Below are positions 1-6,206 of a stretch of DNA of 6,206 nucleotides, piece by piece. Under the pieces are notes generated by a model that saw only the letters and a program-made list of their open reading frames with translations, was not told the origin of the DNA and did no database searches. A program made the translations under genes and the position numbers. The stretch is from IMG/VR virus record IMGVR_UViG_2740892234_000011, one strand, 5' to 3'. Position 1 is the stretch's first letter. Every line of letters starts with the position of its first letter. This stretch comes from a virus. Its lineage: Duplodnaviria; Heunggongvirae; Uroviricota; Caudoviricetes.

Positions 1-425
1 GGATGATGTCAATCATCCAGGCGGCCAGATTCTGTTGAGCAAGTTGATCCAGTGAATCAGATGTCTGCTCCCGCAGCTGGTTGTCGCAGTGCCAGCACAA
101 CACCATCGCGCCGGTACCGTAACGGTGAATGACGGTTTCGCTGTGATGATAATCACCGTGTAGCCACTGGCAGGATTTCACGTGACGTAATAACCAGTCA
201 GACAGTGCACCAGCGCCACCCGCAGCACGGATCACCCGCTCATCGCTGAAAAATGGCAGTAGTGATTTATCTTCCGCCAGCGGCTGGTGAACGGCAGGTA
301 CAACCCCGGACGGCAGAGCTCGCATGCTTTTTGGTTCCGGCTCCACCAGTATTCTGCCGTTATGGAATGCTGACATTGATTCACGGCCTGGCTTAACGAT
401 AACCAGACCGAGTTCCGGTACCAGA
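1..425 (-). CDS. Partial CDS, copy A: lambdoid-prophage protein, YdfU-like (possibly DUF968); C-terminal side runs off the window start, N-terminal side cut by the N-gap
   Basis: Own minus-strand translation is open from 425 to 1: LVPELGLVIVKPGRESMSAFHNGRILVEPEPKSMRALPSGVVPAVHQPLAEDKSLLPFFSDERVIRAAGGAGALSDWLLRHVKSCQWLHGDYHHSETVIHRYGTGAMVLCWHCDNQLREQTSDSLDQLAQQNLAAWMIDII. Not in the ORF track because it has no stop inside the window. YdfU/DUF968 label is a context-and-memory guess. Confidence 0.55.
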
Positions 426-435
426 NNNNNNNNNN

Positions 436-759
436 ATGTATGACAGTTTCGCTGTGATGATAATCACCATGAGGCCACTGGCAGGATTTAACGTGACGTA
501 ATAACCAGTCAGACAGTGCACCAGCGCCACCAGCAGCACGAATCACACGCTCATTGCTGAAAAATGGCAGTAATGATTTATCTTCCGCCAGCGGCTGGCG
601 AACGGCAGGAACGACCCCGGACGGCAGATTACGCATGCTTTTCGGTTCAGACTCCACCAGCACCCTGCCGCCATGAAATACCCGCATGGATTCACGGCCT
701 GGCTTAACGATAACCAGACCGAGTTCCGGTACCAGAACAGGTCGAAGTAATACCCGCAC
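436..759 (-). CDS. Partial CDS, copy B: N-terminal part of the same YdfU-like protein; GTG start at 757-759, 3' side cut by the N-gap
   Basis: Frame reads VRVLLRPVLVPELGLVIVKPGRESMRVFHGGRVLVESEPKSMRNLPSGVVPAVRQPLAEDKSLLPFFSNERVIRAAGGAGALSDWLLRHVKSCQWPHGDYHHSETVIH, a diverged copy of block A. GGAGG lies 4 nt upstream of the GTG. The 232..759 track ORF is a chimera across the gap. Confidence 0.5.
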
Positions 760-761
760 AT

Positions 762-869
762 TACCTCCAGATCCGTTGCTGGAATGTGCGGGACGGACGC
801 GGTGGCCGTTCGGAGTAAGGGAGCCTGACGGAGATTATCCAGTGACGGTAGTCGAGGCTAAGGGCTTTT
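762..869 (-). CDS. Partial CDS: C-terminal 35 codons of a second copy of the small Arg/Cys-rich prophage protein (compare 992..1270), 5' side cut by the N-gap
   Basis: Minus-strand translation KALSLDYRHWIISVRLPYSERPPRPSRTFQQRIWR then TAA at 762-764; near-identical to the C-terminus of the 992..1270 product. Confidence 0.4.
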
Positions 870-879
870 NNNNNNNNNN

Positions 880-990
880 CGGCTCCACCAGTACCCGGGT
901 ATTGTGGAATACCGGCATGGATTCACGGCCCGGCTTAACGATCACCAGCCCGAGTTCCGGTACCAGAACAGGTCGAAGTAATACCCGCAC
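880..990 (-). CDS. Partial CDS, copy C: N-terminal 37 codons of the YdfU-like protein, 3' side cut by the N-gap
   Basis: GTG at 988-990 one nt after the upstream stop, GGAGG 4 nt upstream; translation VRVLLRPVLVPELGLVIVKPGRESMPVFHNTRVLVEP matches copies A and B. Confidence 0.45.
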
Positions 991-991
991 G

Positions 992-1270
992 TTACCTCCA
1001 GATGCGTTGCTGGAATGTGCGGGACGGACGCGGTGGGCGTTCGGAGTAAGGAAGCCTGACGGAGATTATCCAGTGACGGTAGTCGAGGCTAAGGGCTTTT
1101 TTAACCTCGCATCCGCGCCTGCGGTAACACTGAATGAGCCATTCGGCCTGTTCTTCAGTGCATGGGGGATGCTGGTACCAGTCAGATTTGAATGCGTGAA
1201 AACACCGTCCGCGCCTGCTGGCAAAGACGGCAGAATCATCAGAATTGTATAATTTGGTATCGTGCGCCAT
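992..1270 (-). CDS. Small Arg/Cys-rich prophage protein, 92 aa, in the position rem occupies next to hokD in the K-12 Qin prophage; function unknown
   Basis: ATG at 1268-1270, TAA at 992-994: MAHDTKLYNSDDSAVFASRRGRCFHAFKSDWYQHPPCTEEQAEWLIQCYRRRGCEVKKALSLDYRHWIISVRLPYSERPPRPSRTFQQRIWR. The track's TTG start at 1351 is rejected because it sits inside the terminator hairpin. Weak SD, so coding status is not certain. Confidence 0.45.
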   Translation of the reverse strand: MAHDTKLYNSDDSAVFASRRGRCFHAFKSDWYQHPPCTEEQAEWLIQCYRRRGCEVKKALSLDYRHWIISVRLPYSERPPRPSRTFQQRIWR

Positions 1271-1342
1271 CGGTTGTCTCTGCTGGCGCAGCAGGTGCCA
1301 GTTGTTCAGGCTGGCGTGCGAATTGTAAACCAGAATGCCAGG

Positions 1343-1370
1343 AAAAAACAAAACCCGCCGAAGCGGGTTA
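1343..1370 (-). terminator. Rho-independent terminator on the minus strand, belonging to an orphan hok-mRNA 3' end copy
   Basis: Stem acccgc(1353-1358), loop cgaa, stem gcgggt(1363-1368); on the minus strand followed by UUUUGUUUUUU (plus 1343-1352). Confidence 0.55.
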
Positions 1371-1446
1371 AGTGCGGGTGCGTTGAGGATGCCTGATTCA
1401 TCAGAGGTGGCGAGGGATTTCTCCCCCGCCGGGTCTCTTACTCCTC
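1371..1446 (-). promoter_or_regulatory. Orphan copy of a hok mRNA 3' UTR (fbi-like stem-loop region), truncated by the N-gap at 1447
   Basis: About 90% identical by eye to 1799-1867 immediately 3' of the hok stop; the stem ggcgaggga/tcccccgcc has one mismatch relative to the perfect stem at 1840-1861. Confidence 0.45.
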
Positions 1447-1674
1447 NNNNNNNNNNATAAAGTATAAATAAACTGGTTCCAGTGTAAAGCCCCTACATTA
1501 ATGGAATAAAAGTCAAACAACAGATTGTTGGGATAAACACAACGCTTATTATTAAAAGCGATTAGATAAATTAAATTTTAATGTTATGCAATTTTACCAG
1601 ATCACCATAACATCTCGTTTGAAACCACCGAAACAACAACCATATCAATATTGATTATGTTAAAGTGAGTAAAT

Positions 1675-1761
1675 ATGGAAAACAACAAATCTGCACATTA
1701 CGCTCCTTTTTTATCTGTGATACTTTTTGTTTTATGCTGTGTGTGGGCATTATTTTTATAA
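1675..1761 (+). CDS. Hypothetical small hydrophobic peptide, 28 aa, possible small membrane protein
   Basis: ATG 1675 to TAA 1759-1761: MENNKSAHYAPFLSVILFVLCCVWALFL, with one predicted transmembrane helix; partial SD GTGAG 6-7 nt upstream. Sits in an AT-rich non-coding stretch, so chance occurrence is quite possible. Confidence 0.2.
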   Translation: MENNKSAHYAPFLSVILFVLCCVWALFL

Positions 1762-1772
1762 AAATATTTACA

Positions 1773-1798
1773 GATAAAATAAACCCGCCGAAGCGGGT
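1773..1798 (-). terminator. Rho-independent terminator of the hok mRNA
   Basis: Stem acccgc / gcgggt with cgaa loop (1783-1798), followed on the minus strand by UUAUUUUAU (plus 1773-1782). Confidence 0.6.
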
Positions 1799-1867
1799 TA
1801 AGTGCGGGTGCATTGAGGATGCCTGACACATCAGAGGTGGCGAGGGATTTCTCCCTCGCCGGGTCTC
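1799..1867 (-). promoter_or_regulatory. hok mRNA 3' UTR with fbi-like stem-loop
   Basis: Perfect 9-bp inverted repeat ggcgaggga-tttc-tccctcgcc at 1840-1861 immediately 3' of the hok stop, in the position of the fold-back-inhibition element of plasmid R1 hok mRNA. Confidence 0.5.
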
Positions 1868-2023
1868 TTACTCCTCAGGTTCGTAAGCTGTGAAGACAGC
1901 GACCTCCGTCTGGCCGGTTCGGATTCGTACCTCGCAGAGGTCTTTCCTCGTTACCAGTGCCGTCACTATGACGGTTAAACAGATGACGATCAGGGCGATT
2001 AACATCGCCTTTTGCTGCTTCAT
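1868..2023 (-). CDS. hokD: Hok/Gef-family type I toxin, 51 aa, HokD/RelF-like
   Basis: ATG 2021-2023, TAA 1868-1870: MKQQKAMLIALIVICLTVIVTALVTRKDLCEVRIRTGQTEVAVFTAYEPEE. Single TM helix plus conserved C-terminal RKDLCEV..TGQTEVAVF..YE as in Gef/HokC and HokD. SD AAGGAG 9 nt upstream. Family is certain; the hokD-versus-hokC paralog call is from memory. Confidence 0.85.
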   Translation of the reverse strand: MKQQKAMLIALIVICLTVIVTALVTRKDLCEVRIRTGQTEVAVFTAYEPEE

Positions 2024-2080
2024 AGCCTGCTTCTCCTTGCCTTTCGGCACGTAAGAGGCTAACCTACGTTTGTGAAGCAT
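1868..2080 (-). CDS. mok-like reading frame, 70 aa, in-frame N-terminal extension of hok
   Basis: ATG at 2078-2080 gives MLHKRRLASYVPKGKEKQA followed by the complete Hok sequence, the same arrangement as mokC/hokC in E. coli K-12. Confidence 0.5.
   Translation of the reverse strand: MLHKRRLASYVPKGKEKQAMKQQKAMLIALIVICLTVIVTALVTRKDLCEVRIRTGQTEVAVFTAYEPEE
2037..2065 (+). promoter_or_regulatory. Putative sok antisense promoter
   Basis: -35 TTGCCT (2037-2042), 17-nt spacer, -10 TAACCT (2060-2065), antisense inside the mok N-terminal codons. Arrangement mirrors what I recall of the R1 sok promoter; not verified. Confidence 0.4.
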
Positions 2081-2150
2081 AGATTGGGCCTCAGATTAAT
2101 GTTAAGCGTCTTGCAGGACGCGTAATGTTAACTGGGGCTTTTCTCTGTCT
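2072..2150 (+). ncRNA. Putative Sok-like antisense RNA, complementary to the hok leader and mok start; ends approximate
   Basis: Starts just downstream of the putative -10, is complementary to the mok start/SD region, and contains a hairpin gcgtc-ttgcag-gacgc (2106-2121). The 3' end is not defined and the N-gap begins at 2154. Confidence 0.3.
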
Positions 2151-2153
2151 GCC
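2081..2153 (-). promoter_or_regulatory. hok mRNA 5' leader (mok-proximal part), truncated by the N-gap
   Basis: Minus-strand sequence GGCAGACAGAGAAAAGCCCCAG...GCAAGGAGAAGCAGGCTATG is collinear with what I recall of the R1 hok leader. Confidence 0.5.
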
Positions 2154-2163
2154 NNNNNNNNNN

Positions 2164-2284
2164 CAAAGCATGAAATTGGCCTCAGATTAATGTTAAGCGT
2201 CTTGCCGGACGCGTAATGTTAACTGGGGCTTTTCTCTATCTGCCTTTTGGTGTTCATGCCTGAGGCAGATAGCCTCAAGCACCC
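2164..2284 (-). promoter_or_regulatory. hok mRNA 5' leader, second copy, including the 5'-terminal hairpins; begins at a mok ATG (2169-2171) at the gap edge
   Basis: Minus strand reads GGGTGCTTGAGGCTATCTGCCTCAGGCATGAACACCAAAAGGCAGATAG...: a 5' hairpin GAGGC/GCCTC and a long-range stem ctatctgcc/ggcagatag, matching the 5' end of R1 hok mRNA as I recall it. Differs from block D at two positions in the 67 nt they share. Confidence 0.55.
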
Positions 2285-2290
2285 GCAGCA

Positions 2291-2319
2291 ATTCTAACTA
2301 TCCAATAGATCAATGCCAA
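2291..2319 (-). promoter_or_regulatory. Promoter of the hok mRNA
   Basis: On the minus strand: -35 TTGGCA (plus 2314-2319), exact 17-nt spacer, -10 TAGAAT (plus 2291-2296), about 7 nt upstream of the inferred hok mRNA 5' end near 2284. Confidence 0.6.
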
Positions 2320-2671
2320 CTTCTTTTCCTGCAACATCTCTCATCATAAGTGACCCAAATTCATCCAATCAGCACAAAAGAAACATTTAAAGCGTGAATG
2401 CTACCGAACGTTCATTTCAATTACATCGTTTTGATTTTTAACAGTTTTCACCTCAACAAATCAAATGGCATTAGCATTCATCATGGAAGAAAGACTGATA
2501 AAAATGATCATTTTCAATGACTTATGATCACACCGGGTATTGCCAAGTCATTCCTTTTACGCCAGGATACCCACAAGTGAGTAGTCGAGGAGAGTTTGCC
2601 AATTTTTGCGATATAAATTTCAATGTCCGAAGAACCATTAATTGTTAATTGATTCTGTATAAGGTATTAAC

Positions 2672-3769
2672 ATGACAATTTCATATATTCCTATTCTGAA
2701 AGCGAAACGTTCTGAGTTATCAGCTTTATCGCAGCTATCCATTGAAAAGAAATCAAAAATTTTGCCATTACTCGAAATTGAACCAGTGCCAATTGACCCT
2801 GATTCAGGTATTGCCTTAAAGAGTTATAACGAGACTCTTATAGAGTTCGGAAAGAAAGTCTCAAAATCTTGCTCAGATATGCAAGGTGTTTATATTGATG
2901 GATTATTAATTGAAGAGCATTTTATTTCTCCTGAAGATCATTACCCTATAATAAATGCGGTTAATCAAGTTAGAGATATGGGGATAAGAGTTATTCCTGT
3001 CAGTTCACCAACTCGCCCATCTAACTATAAAAGAGCGATTGATGAATTAATGCAGAATGAAATATGCTTGAGATTAACCACGTTAGATCTGGTTAACCCA
3101 CAATTAATAACGCATTACATTAATCATCTGGGAATTCCTTTATCAAATATTGATATAATTATTGACTTAAGAGATGAGTTAACCGAGGATAAAATTAATT
3201 CCGGCGAACTATATACTTTGGCAATGGGATTGATAAACAATCTGGCGCACCTCAATGAATACAGAAAAGTGATTCTTTCTGGGGGTTCATTTCCTACAGA
3301 TCTCAGTGATATTTCTGTTGGTCTATATTCTCAACCTCGAATCGAGTGGATTTTATGGCAGAGTTTAATGAATAGAAAAGAACTTGCCAGAAATGTGATT
3401 TATAGTGATTATGGAGTACAGCACCCCGACTTTAATAGGCTTTCGACGCGATTCCCTAGCGTATCTGCCAGCGTCAGATACTCTGGAGATAATGACTTTT
3501 GGGTATTTCGAGGAAGAGTAGCTAATCGCTTTGGTTATGAACAATATGGTAAACATAGTGAGGATATTCTTGCTCATCGAGAATATTCAGGGCCTACATT
3601 CTGTGCGGGAGATAGAGACATAGAATATTATGCAAACGAGTATCAAGCCTACAAAGCCAATCCCTCTGGTAACTATAAATTTGGTAGCCCAGAGGTATGG
3701 CGTAGGATTGGGCAAAACCATCACATAACTAAGGTTGTTGAGCAACTCGCCACTCTTTACGGGCTTTAA
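2672..3769 (+). CDS. Hypothetical protein, 365 aa, no family confidently assigned; candidate component of a two-gene defence module
   Basis: Single long ORF, ATG 2672 is the first start after an in-frame TAA at 2660-2662, stop TAA 3767-3769; AAGG 7 nt upstream. AT-rich codon usage unlike the flanking genes. Soluble-looking, only 3 Cys, no obvious Walker, HNH, HEPN or PD-(D/E)xK motif. N-terminus MTISYIPILKAKRSELSAL. Confidence 0.85.
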   Translation: MTISYIPILKAKRSELSALSQLSIEKKSKILPLLEIEPVPIDPDSGIALKSYNETLIEFGKKVSKSCSDMQGVYIDGLLIEEHFISPEDHYPIINAVNQVRDMGIRVIPVSSPTRPSNYKRAIDELMQNEICLRLTTLDLVNPQLITHYINHLGIPLSNIDIIIDLRDELTEDKINSGELYTLAMGLINNLAHLNEYRKVILSGGSFPTDLSDISVGLYSQPRIEWILWQSLMNRKELARNVIYSDYGVQHPDFNRLSTRFPSVSASVRYSGDNDFWVFRGRVANRFGYEQYGKHSEDILAHREYSGPTFCAGDRDIEYYANEYQAYKANPSGNYKFGSPEVWRRIGQNHHITKVVEQLATLYGL

Positions 3770-4307
3770 GTTTAACTCGAACAGCTTCACGAAGCTCGCC
3801 AACATCCATACTATTGGCGAGTTTTGACCATAAGACGCGTTTAGGTTTATTTTTCAAATTCTGTAGCTCCCCTACATCACTTAATAGGGAAAGCAATTCA
3901 TCTTTCCAAAGAAGCATTGTTAAGGAAAGTTTGTCCACTTGTGGATTCAACTTGCTAGTTCGAATTGTTTTTAAATGGATACCTTGCCGTGCACCTTGCG
4001 TAACTTGCTTTATCCCCCACCATGATGGAACTATGCTTAAAGCATCATAAAGATGGCAATCAGAGACAACCAAAGTTACTTTATCCATCACTGATGAGTA
4101 ATGTTGCACCTGCGCTGGTAATCTGAGCAAGTTATCACTCTTGCTCTTCAACTCATAACCATGTATAAGCCCATTGATCACTGCTATATCAGCTCTGCTA
4201 GCCCCTAGATTCATCGTAAACTCATCAATGATTAGGGTGTCAGGATCTTTATGATGATCTCTCAGAATCTTGGCATGCACAGCCTTTCTTACATCAATGT
4301 CTCTCAT
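3729..4307 (-). CDS. Hypothetical protein, 192 aa, with a PD-(D/E)xK nuclease-like signature; candidate effector of a two-gene defence module
   Basis: ATG 4305-4307 is the first start after an in-frame TGA; stop TAG 3729-3731. N-terminal region ...TLIIDEF TMNLGASRADIAVINGLIHGYELKSKSD gives E29, D40, E52-x-K54 in alternating hydrophobic strands, typical of the restriction-endonuclease fold. The C-terminal half looks helical. The 3' end overlaps the 365-aa CDS by 41 bp. Confidence 0.8.
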   Translation of the reverse strand: MRDIDVRKAVHAKILRDHHKDPDTLIIDEFTMNLGASRADIAVINGLIHGYELKSKSDNLLRLPAQVQHYSSVMDKVTLVVSDCHLYDALSIVPSWWGIKQVTQGARQGIHLKTIRTSKLNPQVDKLSLTMLLWKDELLSLLSDVGELQNLKNKPKRVLWSKLANSMDVGELREAVRVKLKARKEWRVAQQP

Positions 4308-4612
4308 ACCATAGTTGCGCTTTCATCGACTCTCTCAAGCCATGATTCTATATCATGGTTCGCATGAATGCCATTTGATATGACCAGTGGTTAAACATTG
4401 CACAGAAAAGTGGATGTGTATTTTAACAAAAGCAATGACGGCTAACCATGTTGGTATGTCGATAAAATGTTTCAACGTAAGCATTATCTGTTCCGCCCTT
4501 TCAGACGGTCTCCTGATGTTCTGAGGGTGCAGAATCCCTCCGGTTAAGGATTTAATAAAAATCGTTTCTGATTTAAATCTTCAGTATTTAGTTGTTAGTC
4601 GGTTTATAGCCT

Positions 4613-4924
4613 TTATGCTTCGGCCTTATTTCGCAACCAGACACAAACCGGGCCATCTTCCGTATCATGAATGGAACCAATAAACCAGCCATCGCCCTCT
4701 GGTCGTTCCGGTTCCCATGCAGAAATATCAGCATCACACGCATCAAGGTCAGCACATCCTTCATCTCTGAAGCAGAGGACGTATTGAAGATTATTTTCCT
4801 CCATCCAGGCGTTAAACTCTTCCGTTGAAATATATTCCCGACCGTCACAGAATTTTTCATATTCAGGATGCGTCCAGCAGCCATATTCATCACGTACTAC
4901 TGGTGTTTCTTTAATTTCATTCAT
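4613..4924 (-). CDS. Hypothetical acidic prophage protein, 103 aa
   Basis: MNEIKETPVVRDEYGCWTHPEYEKFCDGREYISTEEFNAWMEENNLQYVLCFRDEGCADLDACDADISAWEPERPEGDGWFIGSIHDTEDGPVCVWLRNKAEA. Its start overlaps the stop of the upstream gene (4917-4924), and GC content is typical of the prophage backbone. Confidence 0.7.
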   Translation of the reverse strand: MNEIKETPVVRDEYGCWTHPEYEKFCDGREYISTEEFNAWMEENNLQYVLCFRDEGCADLDACDADISAWEPERPEGDGWFIGSIHDTEDGPVCVWLRNKAEA

Positions 4925-5171
4925 TTCTGTTCTCCCACGTTTTCAGACTTTCACCACAGAACGGACAAAATGAAACCCGAACTGGTAATTTAGAAAATTC
5001 ACCGGAACGCAACATCACAAAATCAGGACCGCGAGTTAAACTCTCATTCCAGATTTTGTATATCAGCAGACCTTTTCGCATCGTGTATTCAGCATCATGC
5101 TCAAGGGACTTTGCCAGTGCTGCACATGGTTCTATCTTGTTGCCATTAACCTGGCATTTTGATTCACTCAC
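4917..5171 (-). CDS. Hypothetical small Cys-containing prophage protein, 84 aa, possible zinc-ribbon
   Basis: MSESKCQVNGNKIEPCAALAKS...VSFCPFCGESLKTWENRNE with Cys at 6, 16, 69 and 72 (CPFC). Its start overlaps the Ren-like stop by 4 nt. Confidence 0.65.
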   Translation of the reverse strand: MSESKCQVNGNKIEPCAALAKSLEHDAEYTMRKGLLIYKIWNESLTRGPDFVMLRSGEFSKLPVRVSFCPFCGESLKTWENRNE

Positions 5172-5590
5172 CGCACCACCTCCTCAAAATTCCCCTGATA
5201 AAACGCCAGTACGCGCTGCATAACTTCGCTCTTCCGGCACTCGAGACAGATTATGTTCAGACGCCTGTCGTAGCGGCGTATTTCGCCATCTGGTAATGAC
5301 CAGATAAGGTCCGGATCAACCGCAGATGGTTTCTTCAGCTTTGCCCTTGAGAGTTTTTTGCGGGCATTTTGCCAGTCTTTACGAGCCTGTTCAGACGGGA
5401 ATAACCCGTAGCCAGAATTGTATACATCGCCACTGGCAACCAGCTCTCTGGCCAGAACGCTCATCAGATATCTTGTTGCCCCAGTTTTAGTTTCCAGTTG
5501 TCGTAACGTCTCGCGCCCACTCTGGCGTACGAGTTCAACAACCTGCCCTTTAATTTTTTCCCGCTCTTCTTGTGTAAAAACTTTTGCCAC
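5168..5590 (-). CDS. Lambda Ren-like protein, 140 aa
   Basis: GTG start 5588-5590 with AGGAGG 4 nt upstream. The C-terminus CLECRKSEVMQRVLAFYQG resembles the lambda Ren C-terminus FKECRQSAAMKRVLAVYG as I recall it, and ETKTGATRY resembles Ren AALTGATV. Position downstream of replication genes matches lambda ren. Confidence 0.7.
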   Translation of the reverse strand: MAKVFTQEEREKIKGQVVELVRQSGRETLRQLETKTGATRYLMSVLARELVASGDVYNSGYGLFPSEQARKDWQNARKKLSRAKLKKPSAVDPDLIWSLPDGEIRRYDRRLNIICLECRKSEVMQRVLAFYQGNFEEVVR

Positions 5591-5737
5591 AAGCCCTCCT
5601 GAAAATTACCCCATGACCTGAAATCTGTTACCCTCTGAATCCCGGCGGAATTTCGGTGTCCGGTTCAGAAATATGATTAACACAACGCTGGTTGTTCGTG
5701 CCGCTTACCGGGAGCAACCAGGGGTTTNNNNNNNNNN

Positions 5738-5971
5738 CTCCTGCTCTCACGACAAATTATGTTCTGGTGCCTGTCGTAGCGGCGTATTTCGCCGTCTGGT
5801 AACGACCAGATAAGGTCCGGATCAACCACTGCAGGTTTCTTCAGCTTTGCCCTTGAGAGCTTTTTACGGGTATTTTGCCAGTCCTTACGCGCCTGTTCAG
5901 ACGGGAATAACCCGTAACCAGAGTTGTATACATCGCCACTGGCAACCAGCTCTCTGGCCAGAACGCTCATC
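5738..5971 (-). CDS. Partial CDS: internal fragment of a second, diverged Ren-like gene copy, bounded by N-gaps on both sides
   Basis: Translation MSVLARELVASGDVYNSGYGLFPSEQARKDWQNTRKKLSRAKLKKPAVVDPDLIWSLPDGEIRRYDRHQNIICRESR parallels residues 44-120 of the 5168..5590 product with several substitutions. Confidence 0.45.
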
Positions 5972-5981
5972 NNNNNNNNNN

Positions 5982-6206
5982 AGCCAGGTATCTTGTGTAA
6001 CGCCTCACACCATCCAGCATGGCCTCTGGTGGCACCCCCTCGCGTAATCTGGCCTTCCAGGCACTGAAAGCGGATTTCTTCGGGTTTGCCCCGGCTCGTA
6101 ACGGGTATTCCCGCCAGACCTGCTCGAACACATCCGGATAATCCACTCGTCCCACAGGCTGCCCGGTGTTTTCCGGGACTACCCGATCGGCTTCCCGCTG
6201 AATGGC
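5982..6206 (-). CDS. Partial CDS, truncated at both ends: prophage early-region protein, probably replication-associated
   Basis: Minus-strand frame open from the window end to the gap: AIQREADRVVPENTGQPVGRVDYPDVFEQVWREYPLRAGANPKKSAFSAWKARLREGVPPEAMLDGVRRYTRYLA. No family recognised with confidence. Confidence 0.45.

Follow-up and report, generated by a model that had tools for sequence, protein, structure and literature searches.

Composition of the window

The window, i.e. the whole stretch of 6,206 nt that was analysed, contains genes of lambda-like prophages together with a hok/sok type I toxin-antitoxin region, and is divided by runs of N into seven blocks (B1–B7). Six such runs, each exactly 10 nt long, had been reported in the first-pass annotation, and all six were located; neighboring blocks overlap at 84–96% identity. 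The following blocks, genes and spacers were assigned.

1-425, minus strand: B1, internal fragment from the N-terminal half of a DUF968 gene; 4.97-Mb prophage copy of NZ_CP027544.1
436-869, minus strand: B2, first 108 DUF968 codons (start codon at 759) and 3′ end of the 92-aa gene; 0.95-Mb prophage copy
880-1446, minus strand: B3, DUF968 start (880-990), 92-aa Arg/Cys-rich hypothetical gene (992-1270), hok terminator (1352-1369) and hokD 3′ end; mosaic of two copies
1457-2153, minus strand: B4, 324-bp insert with 28% GC (1457-1780), hok terminator (1782-1799), hokD CDS (1868-2023) and part of the hok leader/sok region
2018-2284, minus strand: sok antisense RNA/hok leader (Rfam RF01794), written twice across the B4/B5 spacer
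2164-5727, no strand: B5, hok leader/sok, beta and cII-like genes, two small genes, DUF977 gene and 3′ end of a replication-initiation gene
2672-3769, plus strand: Beta-family protein gene, 365 aa (Pfam PF14350 Beta_protein, 3.8e-52)
3729-4307, minus strand: sce7726/phage P4 cII-like gene, 192 aa (NCBIfam NF033832, 1.7e-56)
4613-4924, minus strand: small phage gene, 103 aa (phrog_1372, 1.6e-55)
4917-5171, minus strand: small phage gene, 84 aa (phrog_4030, 2.1e-39)
5168-5590, minus strand: DUF977/Ren-like gene, 140 aa (Pfam PF06163, 1.2e-29; PHROG 142 'Ren-like exclusion protein', 3.8e-47)
5738-5971, minus strand: B6, internal fragment of a paralogous DUF977 gene of the 0.95-Mb prophage, placed between B5 and B7
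5982-6206, minus strand: B7, backbone prophage; internal fragment of its replication-initiation (replisome organizer-like) gene
426-435, 870-879, 1447-1456, 2154-2163, 5728-5737 and 5972-5981, no strand: 10-N spacers

All five between-block overlaps were obtained with E-values <= 1e-23. B1 126-425 matches B2 437-736 (89.7% identity, 300 nt), B2 652-869 matches B3 883-1100 (92.2%, 218 nt), B3 1351-1446 matches B4 1781-1876 (95.8%, 96 nt), B4 2075-2153 matches B5 2166-2244 (92.4%, 79 nt), and B5 5233-5465 matches B6 5739-5971 (91.0%, 233 nt). Since the blocks on either side of a spacer share homologous coordinates, the 10 N of each spacer hold a place and do not give the length of a gap. Several details of the earlier description could be refined. 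B1, B2 and B3 had been described as carrying parts of the same two genes, which is correct for B2 and B3, but B1 lies wholly inside the DUF968 gene. The two substitutions in 67 nt given for the hok leader apply to the last 67 nt, while the full overlap comprises 81 nt with eight differences. The description of 5738-5971 as a diverged internal copy of the Ren-like gene agrees with the 91% identity to B5, and the label 'Ren-like' itself with PHROG 142, the Pfam name being DUF977. The seventh block (5982-6206), a fragment of a replication-initiation gene whose full-length form is matched by phrog_3729, was missing from the first list of blocks.

For hok/sok, a Hok/Gef ORF is present (Pfam PF01848 HOK_GEF, 3e-23, on 1868-2080, minus strand), and the gene is annotated as hokD in closed genomes. 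RF01794 scored 108.8 bits over 267 nt in the window versus 119.8 bits over 176 nt in the closed locus; the match is stretched to 267 nt because the 176 nt are extended by 81 duplicated nt and 10 N. As had been noticed before, the 3′ side of hok differs between the blocks, with the 92-aa Arg/Cys-rich gene in B3 versus the AT-rich 324-bp stretch of 28% GC in B4. A match to isrK at 1348-1429 reached 27 bits versus a gathering score of 50 and, being below this threshold, was attributed to the hok terminator hairpin. The gaps also give rise to fused ORFs, for example one of 175 aa at 232-759 and one of 188 aa at 686-1252. The gap-crossing 175-aa ORF is not on record, and the junction pattern including the Ns gave no match in viral contigs.

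The beta and cII-like genes of block B5

The beta-family gene (GC 37%) was additionally matched by PADLOC PD-Lambda-2_C (1.8e-41) and weakly by PADLOC 'beta' (2e-4, N-terminus only), and the cII-like gene by PADLOC 'cll' (2.4e-28) and PF26915 Phage_P4_cII (precomputed match). Both genes are convergent, with a 41-nt overlap at the beta 3′ end. At least two different lambdoid prophage backbones carry the low-GC cassette with this pair (~2245-4556) in the same position, with the hokD/sok leader on one side and the Ren-like region on the other. The PHROGs assigned to the two small genes are of unknown function, and in the closed genome both genes bear the annotation 'hypothetical'.

PD-lambda-2 consists of a HigB-like protein (A), a HigA-peptidase (B) and a beta-like protein (C) (PMC9519451), and the two tested systems, gop-beta-cII and PD-lambda-2, each include a Beta-family protein (bioRxiv 10.1101/2023.04.06.535777; PMC9519451). 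Like gop-beta-cII of satellite phage P4, the B5 cargo encodes a Beta_protein-family and a P4 cII-like (sce7726) protein; however, the B5 pair is without gop, convergent, and located beside hokD in a lambdoid prophage instead of a P4 hotspot. No gop toxin gene was found by the pair, as 2245-2671 and 4308-4612 contain no ORF >45 aa and the neighboring genes have no PADLOC match. With PD-lambda-2 of E. coli, the pair shares the beta-like C component, but no homologue of A or B was found in B5, i.e. there is no adjoining HigB-like or HigA-peptidase gene. The gop-less pair might conceivably form an autonomous two-gene abortive-infection or exclusion module instead of being a remnant of the P4 system or PD-lambda-2, a reading which we consider doubtful.

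Provenance of the blocks and their boundaries

Closed genomes were compared with the blocks, and three prophage loci of the clinical E. coli 2013C-3264 (NZ_CP027544.1) at 5.22, 0.95 and 4.97 Mb are designated here L001, L002 and L003, with L001 as the backbone. This genome alone holds five of the seven blocks at 100% identity, split among three prophages megabases apart, the block-source loci being separated by up to 4 Mb. B1 is identical over 425 nt to L003 7001-7425 (4,972,045-4,972,469) and shows 85.6% identity to the backbone L001. Two blocks come from L002, namely B2 with 100% over 434 nt to 7001-7434 (951,569-952,002) and B6 with 100% to 11200-11433 (955,768-956,001). B5 matches at 100% over 3564 nt both L001 5391-8954 and locus L011, thus two closed genomes, in agreement with the earlier statement that only 2164-5727 is surely contiguous. 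B7 is identical to L001 9026-9250 and begins 71 nt past the B5 end in the closed genome, where B5 and B7 together lie at 5,223,2xx-5,227,xxx; the missing 71 nt are a string in common with the 0.95-Mb prophage.

Projected on L001, B1 falls at 4001-4424, B2 at 4125-4557, B3 at 4337-4774, B4 at 4775-5471 and B6 at 8460-8692, in addition to B5 and B7 at their identical matches. The starts rise monotonically without any change of orientation, and the 6146 bases of the blocks are packed onto 5250 bp. B6 is nested within the B5 span, and the distance from B6 to B7 is ~333 nt there. The early-right region of 2013C-3264 (5.219-5.232 Mb) comprises the replication gene, the DUF977/Ren-like gene, the small genes and the cargo, followed by hokD/sok, the 92-aa gene, DUF968, RusA and the antiterminator. 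This gene order is the backbone order of the window. In comparison, the window contains the additional paralogous fragments B1, B2 and B6 as well as variant bases in B3 and B4, and it is devoid of L001 4001-4336 (5′ part of the backbone DUF968 gene), 4567-4706 and 8955-9025.

For the whole window and several blocks, the top-scoring closed-genome matches include O157:H7, O26, O111, O103 and O121 strains. The setting suggested before, i.e. enterohaemorrhagic E. coli, is thus in accordance with the closed-genome comparison, and the host of the strung-together prophage pieces is a Shiga-toxin-type E. coli. The variants B1, B2 and B6 also occur, each at 100%, in many different strains, and DUF968 is present at up to nine places per genome (six in the reference strain).

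The right ends of five of the seven blocks (B1, B4, B5, B6 and B7) are located exactly 48 nt inside a string present in two prophage copies; for B1 this string is common to L002 and L003. A random position shows such a 48-nt stop at a frequency of 0.0033, which gives P(at least 5 of 7) ~8e-12. The last 48 nt of B2 are identical to B3/L001, and the string of B2 common to L002 and L003 comprises 181 nt. The right end of B3 is an exception, as it is just 20 nt inside a shared string. In the true loci, an exact inter-copy repeat is found right before each block start without reaching into the block. These repeats comprise 53–122 nt for six blocks, and the one before B5, shared with five other prophage variants (not within the reference genome), has 105 nt and ends one base before the block. 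The left block ends therefore carry no k-1 shared bases, and the 48 nt are present at right ends only.

In a simulated k = 49 graph built from the three closed loci only, B6 is a single unitig minus its first 48 nt with both ends exact, and B1, B2 and B7 are exact runs of three, four and three consecutive unitigs, respectively. The graph also reproduces the B3 start, the B4 start and the B5 end. The right end of B3 and the copy switch in B4 fit k = 49 only with further unsampled copies.

Both B3 and B4 are mosaics. B3 is identical to L001 in 880-1109 and to L002 in 1053-1446, and the change from L001 to L002 falls in a 57-nt stretch identical in both and thus not shorter than k. No 100% match to B3 was found among 5,426 closed genomes, the best being 99.8% in O157:H7 LSU61. 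The 121-nt pattern over the switch is present in 23 viral contigs, which are otherwise only ~93% identical to B3. For B4, 1457-1966 is identical to L001 and 1925-2153 to L002, with only 42 shared nt at the change among the three sampled loci. Among the 5,426 closed genomes, no match to B4 was above 98.7%, and a single donor for its hok part was not found, as every sampled locus differs at 5–13 positions. A 191-nt B4-specific pattern is absent from species-representative genomes; in viral contigs it is confined to five prophage contigs without N runs and without the AT-rich insert. Because B3 and B4 have no 100% match, strain 2013C-3264 is not the source strain itself, and the prophage set of the latter is a presumed one. 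Two readings come into question for B3 and B4, namely contigs that were collapsed or are chimeric, and recombinant copies that truly exist in the source strain. The B3 switch was rejected as proof of a chimera, since O157:H7 LSU61 has the entire block at 99.8% and B3 may be a natural recombinant copy. The earlier conclusion that at least two hok-bearing prophages with different neighbors are involved is likewise correct.

Origin of the window

We are highly confident that the window is an ordinary artefact, a scaffold from short-read assembly that joins pieces from three or more related lambda-like prophages by 10-N spacers. The earlier interpretation as fragmented lambdoid prophage repeats in a short-read scaffold is substantiated by the five blocks found at 100% in three prophages and by the boundaries at branch points of a k = 49 graph. 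The N runs are placeholders of fixed length, the source loci are non-adjacent, and the block boundaries coincide with graph branch points except for the right end of B3.

An E. coli with several related lambdoid prophages would have been assembled from short reads to draft level with a de Bruijn graph of k = 49, and the scaffold would have originated there. Each block would correspond to one graph node, or to a few nodes resolved into a short run, belonging to a single prophage copy; it begins at the first base that differs from the paralogues and stops after including 48 nt (k-1) of the next stretch in which the copies agree. In scaffolding, nodes of different prophages would then have been put on one coordinate axis, probably by links running through the short shared stretches, and every junction would have received the minimum 10-N spacer because overlapping nodes give zero or negative estimated distances. 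The 5.22-Mb prophage is the backbone, contributing the left parts of B3 and B4 as well as B5 and B7; B1 stems from a second and B2 and B6 from a third prophage. We take Velvet to be the assembler that probably fits the block pattern best; it uses an odd k and a minimum gap of 10 N, and when a node follows a gap, its first k-1 bases are omitted.

Ordering of k = 49 contigs by alignment to a one-prophage reference and concatenation by start with fixed 10-N spacers, which would still be an artefact, could explain why the blocks are strictly start-sorted on one prophage in one orientation, including B6 nested in the B5 span, and why all six gaps have 10 N although the true distance between B6 and B7, for instance, is not small. 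Stand-alone contigs, however, would keep k-1 shared bases at both ends. The 48 nt occur at right ends only, which points to an assembler that wrote out the sequence by concatenating its graph nodes; moreover, a greedy insertion of B6 would presumably make the B6-B7 distance negative and so lead to the minimum gap. Reference-guided ordering is therefore rather unlikely. We give even less weight to a mixed culture or metagenome, in which the blocks would come from different strains instead of paralogous prophages of one genome. In favor of such a mixture, the genome matching the other five blocks lacks a perfect counterpart of B3 and of B4, and each variant block is found at 100% in many different strains, but one closed genome holds B1, B2, B5, B6 and B7 at 100%, so that within-genome paralogy suffices, and the boundaries were reproduced by a simulated graph of the loci of this one genome.

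The probability that the window is truly colinear, with N runs masking short stretches or with a real tandem array of diverged partial copies, appears negligible. Nothing was found in favor of it beyond the formal possibility named in the first-pass annotation, in which a closed assembly with N runs as masking was the refuting case. That case is excluded by the overlap of adjacent blocks by 81–495 nt in homologous coordinates and by their 100% matches at three different loci. Furthermore, the best-matching closed genomes have the pieces at a single locus and not in a tandem array, the locus being shorter than the window (5250 bp in the top match), and biology offers no reason for block ends at exactly 48 nt.

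The window as an assembly scaffold of several prophages resembles mis-scaffolded or collapsed paralogous prophage repeats of STEC in the many near-identical lambdoid prophages, the breaks at inter-copy stretches and the copy-specific contigs joined by placeholder gaps. There is no essential difference; unusual here is that the boundaries directly reveal the k-mer size (49) and the way in which nodes were represented. The window as a whole is no real stretch of chromosome but an artefact of a known kind. Accordingly, no biological meaning should be read into the order of the genes, their copy number, or an ORF or RNA that extends across a 10-N run. Trustworthy as written is only 2164-5727, together with the B4-B5 and B5-B7 backbone adjacencies known from closed genomes. 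Given a closed relative, the provenance of such a scaffold (k = 49, node-wise emission) is recoverable from the sequence alone.

Block structure and origin in closed genomes

Six runs of exactly 10 N each (426-435, 870-879, 1447-1456, 2154-2163, 5728-5737, and 5972-5981) separate seven blocks (B1-B7), one more than the first-pass annotation had listed. By all-against-all BLASTN of the blocks, neighboring blocks were found to overlap in homologous sequence: B1 and B2 over 300 nt (89.7% identity), B2 and B3 over 218 nt (92.2%), B3 and B4 over 96 nt (95.8%), B4 and B5 over 79 nt (92.4%), and B5 and B6 over 233 nt (91.0%), so that the earlier description as an N-run mosaic with diverged overlapping copies was right. 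Two details needed adjustment. B1-B3 had been taken as copies of the same two genes, while B1 carries the DUF968 gene only; and the two substitutions in 67 nt noted for the hok leader hold for the last 67 nt of an overlap comprising 81 nt and eight differences.

Among 5,426 complete E. coli genomes searched with the whole window, that of strain 2013C-3264 (NZ_CP027544.1) has the top locus, in which seven pieces amount to 97% of the query yet span only 5250 bp. On this prophage at 5.22 Mb (L001, the backbone), the blocks overlap in a single orientation with their start coordinates in sorted order.

Blocks of the window and their positions on L001
B1: window 1-425; L001 4001-4424
B2: window 436-869; L001 4125-4557
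B3: window 880-1446; L001 4337-4774
B4: window 1457-2153; L001 4775-5471
B5: window 2164-5727; L001 5391-8954
B6: window 5738-5971; L001 8460-8692
B7: window 5982-6206; L001 9026-9250

B5 and B7 are 100% identical to L001, but B1, B2, and B6 only 86-91%. Searched separately, these three blocks have perfect matches elsewhere in NZ_CP027544.1, B1 at 4,972,045-4,972,469, B2 at 951,569-952,002, and B6 at 955,768-956,001. This genome is annotated with three separate lambdoid prophages of one common gene order (replication gene, DUF977, variable small genes, hokD, 92-aa gene, DUF968, RusA, antiterminator). With perfect matches at all three, the five blocks derive from three paralogous prophages that one genome can hold. 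The backbone DUF968 gene (L001 3399-4447) is annotated as a frameshifted pseudogene in 2013C-3264 and is intact in CP055951.1, whose locus is otherwise identical to L001.

Block ends and the k=49 graph

The B1/B2, B2/B3, and B5/B6 overlaps each close with an exact 48-nt run at the block end. When compared with the three closed loci, B1, B4, B5, B6, and B7 each have their right end exactly 48 nt inside a string found in two prophage copies. At random positions, a shared terminal run of precisely this length has a frequency of 0.0033, so that its presence in five of seven blocks corresponds to P ~ 8e-12. The left ends, tested against the same three loci, have no shared string; in the true loci, an exact inter-copy repeat (119, 53, 61, 68, 122, and 71 nt for six blocks) lies upstream of every block start and stops one base before the block. 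A 105-nt string common to five other prophage variants also ends exactly at the start of B5.

A de Bruijn graph with k=49 was simulated from the three closed loci alone. In this graph, B6 emerged as a single unitig lacking its first 48 nt, exact at both ends, and B1, B2, and B7 each corresponded exactly to a series of consecutive unitigs; the positions at which B3 and B4 start and B5 ends were reproduced as well. The 71 nt absent between B5 and B7 are a node that the 0.95-Mb prophage (L002) shares. The blocks are copy-specific nodes of a k=49 graph, concatenated by position on a common axis. Short shared nodes would have linked nodes of different prophages; since the nodes overlap on the axis, estimated distances would be zero or negative, and a minimum spacer would therefore be set at each junction. 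Velvet works with odd k, inserts at least 10 N, and emits a node appended after a gap without its first k-1 bases. We take it to be the best-fitting assembler for the window, and this node emission would account for the left/right asymmetry of the block ends.

The overlapping coordinates of the blocks, their 100% matches at distant loci, and the 48-nt signature rule out both a colinear sequence with masking and a true tandem array. A less likely alternative is that the blocks were ordered on a reference and joined with fixed spacers, which would account for the sorted block order but leaves the one-sided k-1 overhang unexplained. That the blocks stem from a strain mixture is improbable, and such a mixture is unnecessary because a single genome supplies five of them.

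As for its limits, the window begins (1) precisely where a block begins, directly after the 119-nt inter-copy repeat of the true locus, and its last base (6206) is also the last base of a block, 48 nt inside a shared string. It is thus likely to be either a piece of a longer scaffold that was cut at N runs or a record in full. Just upstream, the node of the backbone itself (L001 4000-4323) would be expected.

The mosaic blocks B3 and B4

Neither B3 nor B4 has a perfect match among complete E. coli genomes, the best being 99.8% for B3 (O157:H7 LSU61) and 98.7% for B4. Position by position, B3 is identical to L001 at 880-1109 and to L002 at 1053-1446, and B4 to L001 at 1457-1966 and to L002 at 1925-2153. 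The L001-like part of B4 includes an AT-rich insert of 324 bp, present in L001 alone among the three loci, and the hok part fully matches none of the sampled copies. Each of the two blocks could be a contig that is chimeric or collapsed from a bubble, or else a genuine recombinant copy; the arrangement of B3 does occur in nature. Two points misfit k=49 unless the source genome has further prophage copies: the right end of B3 (within 1399-1446) lies only 20 nt inside a shared string, and where B4 switches from L001 to L002 (1925-1966), the sampled loci share only 42 nt.

The insert (1457-1780; L001 4775-5098; 28% GC) separates the hok terminator from the 92-aa gene, where the other two copies have 33 nt instead. 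The closed genome has no annotation for it, and its sole ORF (1665-1826, plus strand) encodes a hydrophobic product of 53 aa. At least 80% of B4 is present in 578 closed genomes.

Encoded genes and distorted annotations

Genes in the window
1868-2023, minus strand: hokD
2672-3769, plus strand: beta-family gene
3729-4307, minus strand: P4 cII-like/sce7726 gene
4613-4924, minus strand: small gene, function unknown
4917-5171, minus strand: small gene, function unknown
5168-5590, minus strand: DUF977/Ren-like gene (PF06163; PHROG 142)
B7 and end of B5, minus strand: replication-initiation gene (phrog_3729)

Past the beta gene follow the hok leader/sok, hokD, the terminator, the AT-rich insert, the 92-aa gene, and DUF968. 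The convergent beta-family and P4-cII-like/sce7726 genes form a cassette (~2245-4556) of low GC content (37-41%) between the hokD/sok leader and the Ren-like region. The identical beta protein was found in 2241 blocks of the contig collection, and the gene adjoins the cII-like gene in 10/10 places inspected, which represent at least two different backbones (DUF968-type and Fic/DUF1367-type); in the other backbone, similarity to B5 stops near 4556. No gop and no HigB/HigA-like genes accompany the beta gene here, its only partner being the cII-like gene. The pair may form a two-gene module for exclusion or abortive infection.

Two long ORFs, 232-759 (minus strand, 175 aa) and 686-1252 (plus strand, 188 aa), read through 10-N runs and are artefacts fusing fragments of different prophage copies; the 175-aa product has no record in the protein-to-contig index. 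An Rfam isrK match over the hok terminator hairpin (1348-1429, minus strand) is sub-threshold (27 bits vs. a gathering score of 50) and most likely a chance or partial match. The Rfam sok match (2018-2284, minus strand) straddles the B4/B5 spacer and measures 267 nt in the window vs. 176 nt in the closed locus, the extra length being exactly the 81 duplicated nt plus 10 N. It is a concrete case of an annotation distorted by the scaffold. The window is, as the first-pass annotation had proposed, an assembly artefact, one of a well-known kind, and its mosaic structure is a real property of the record, not a biological feature.
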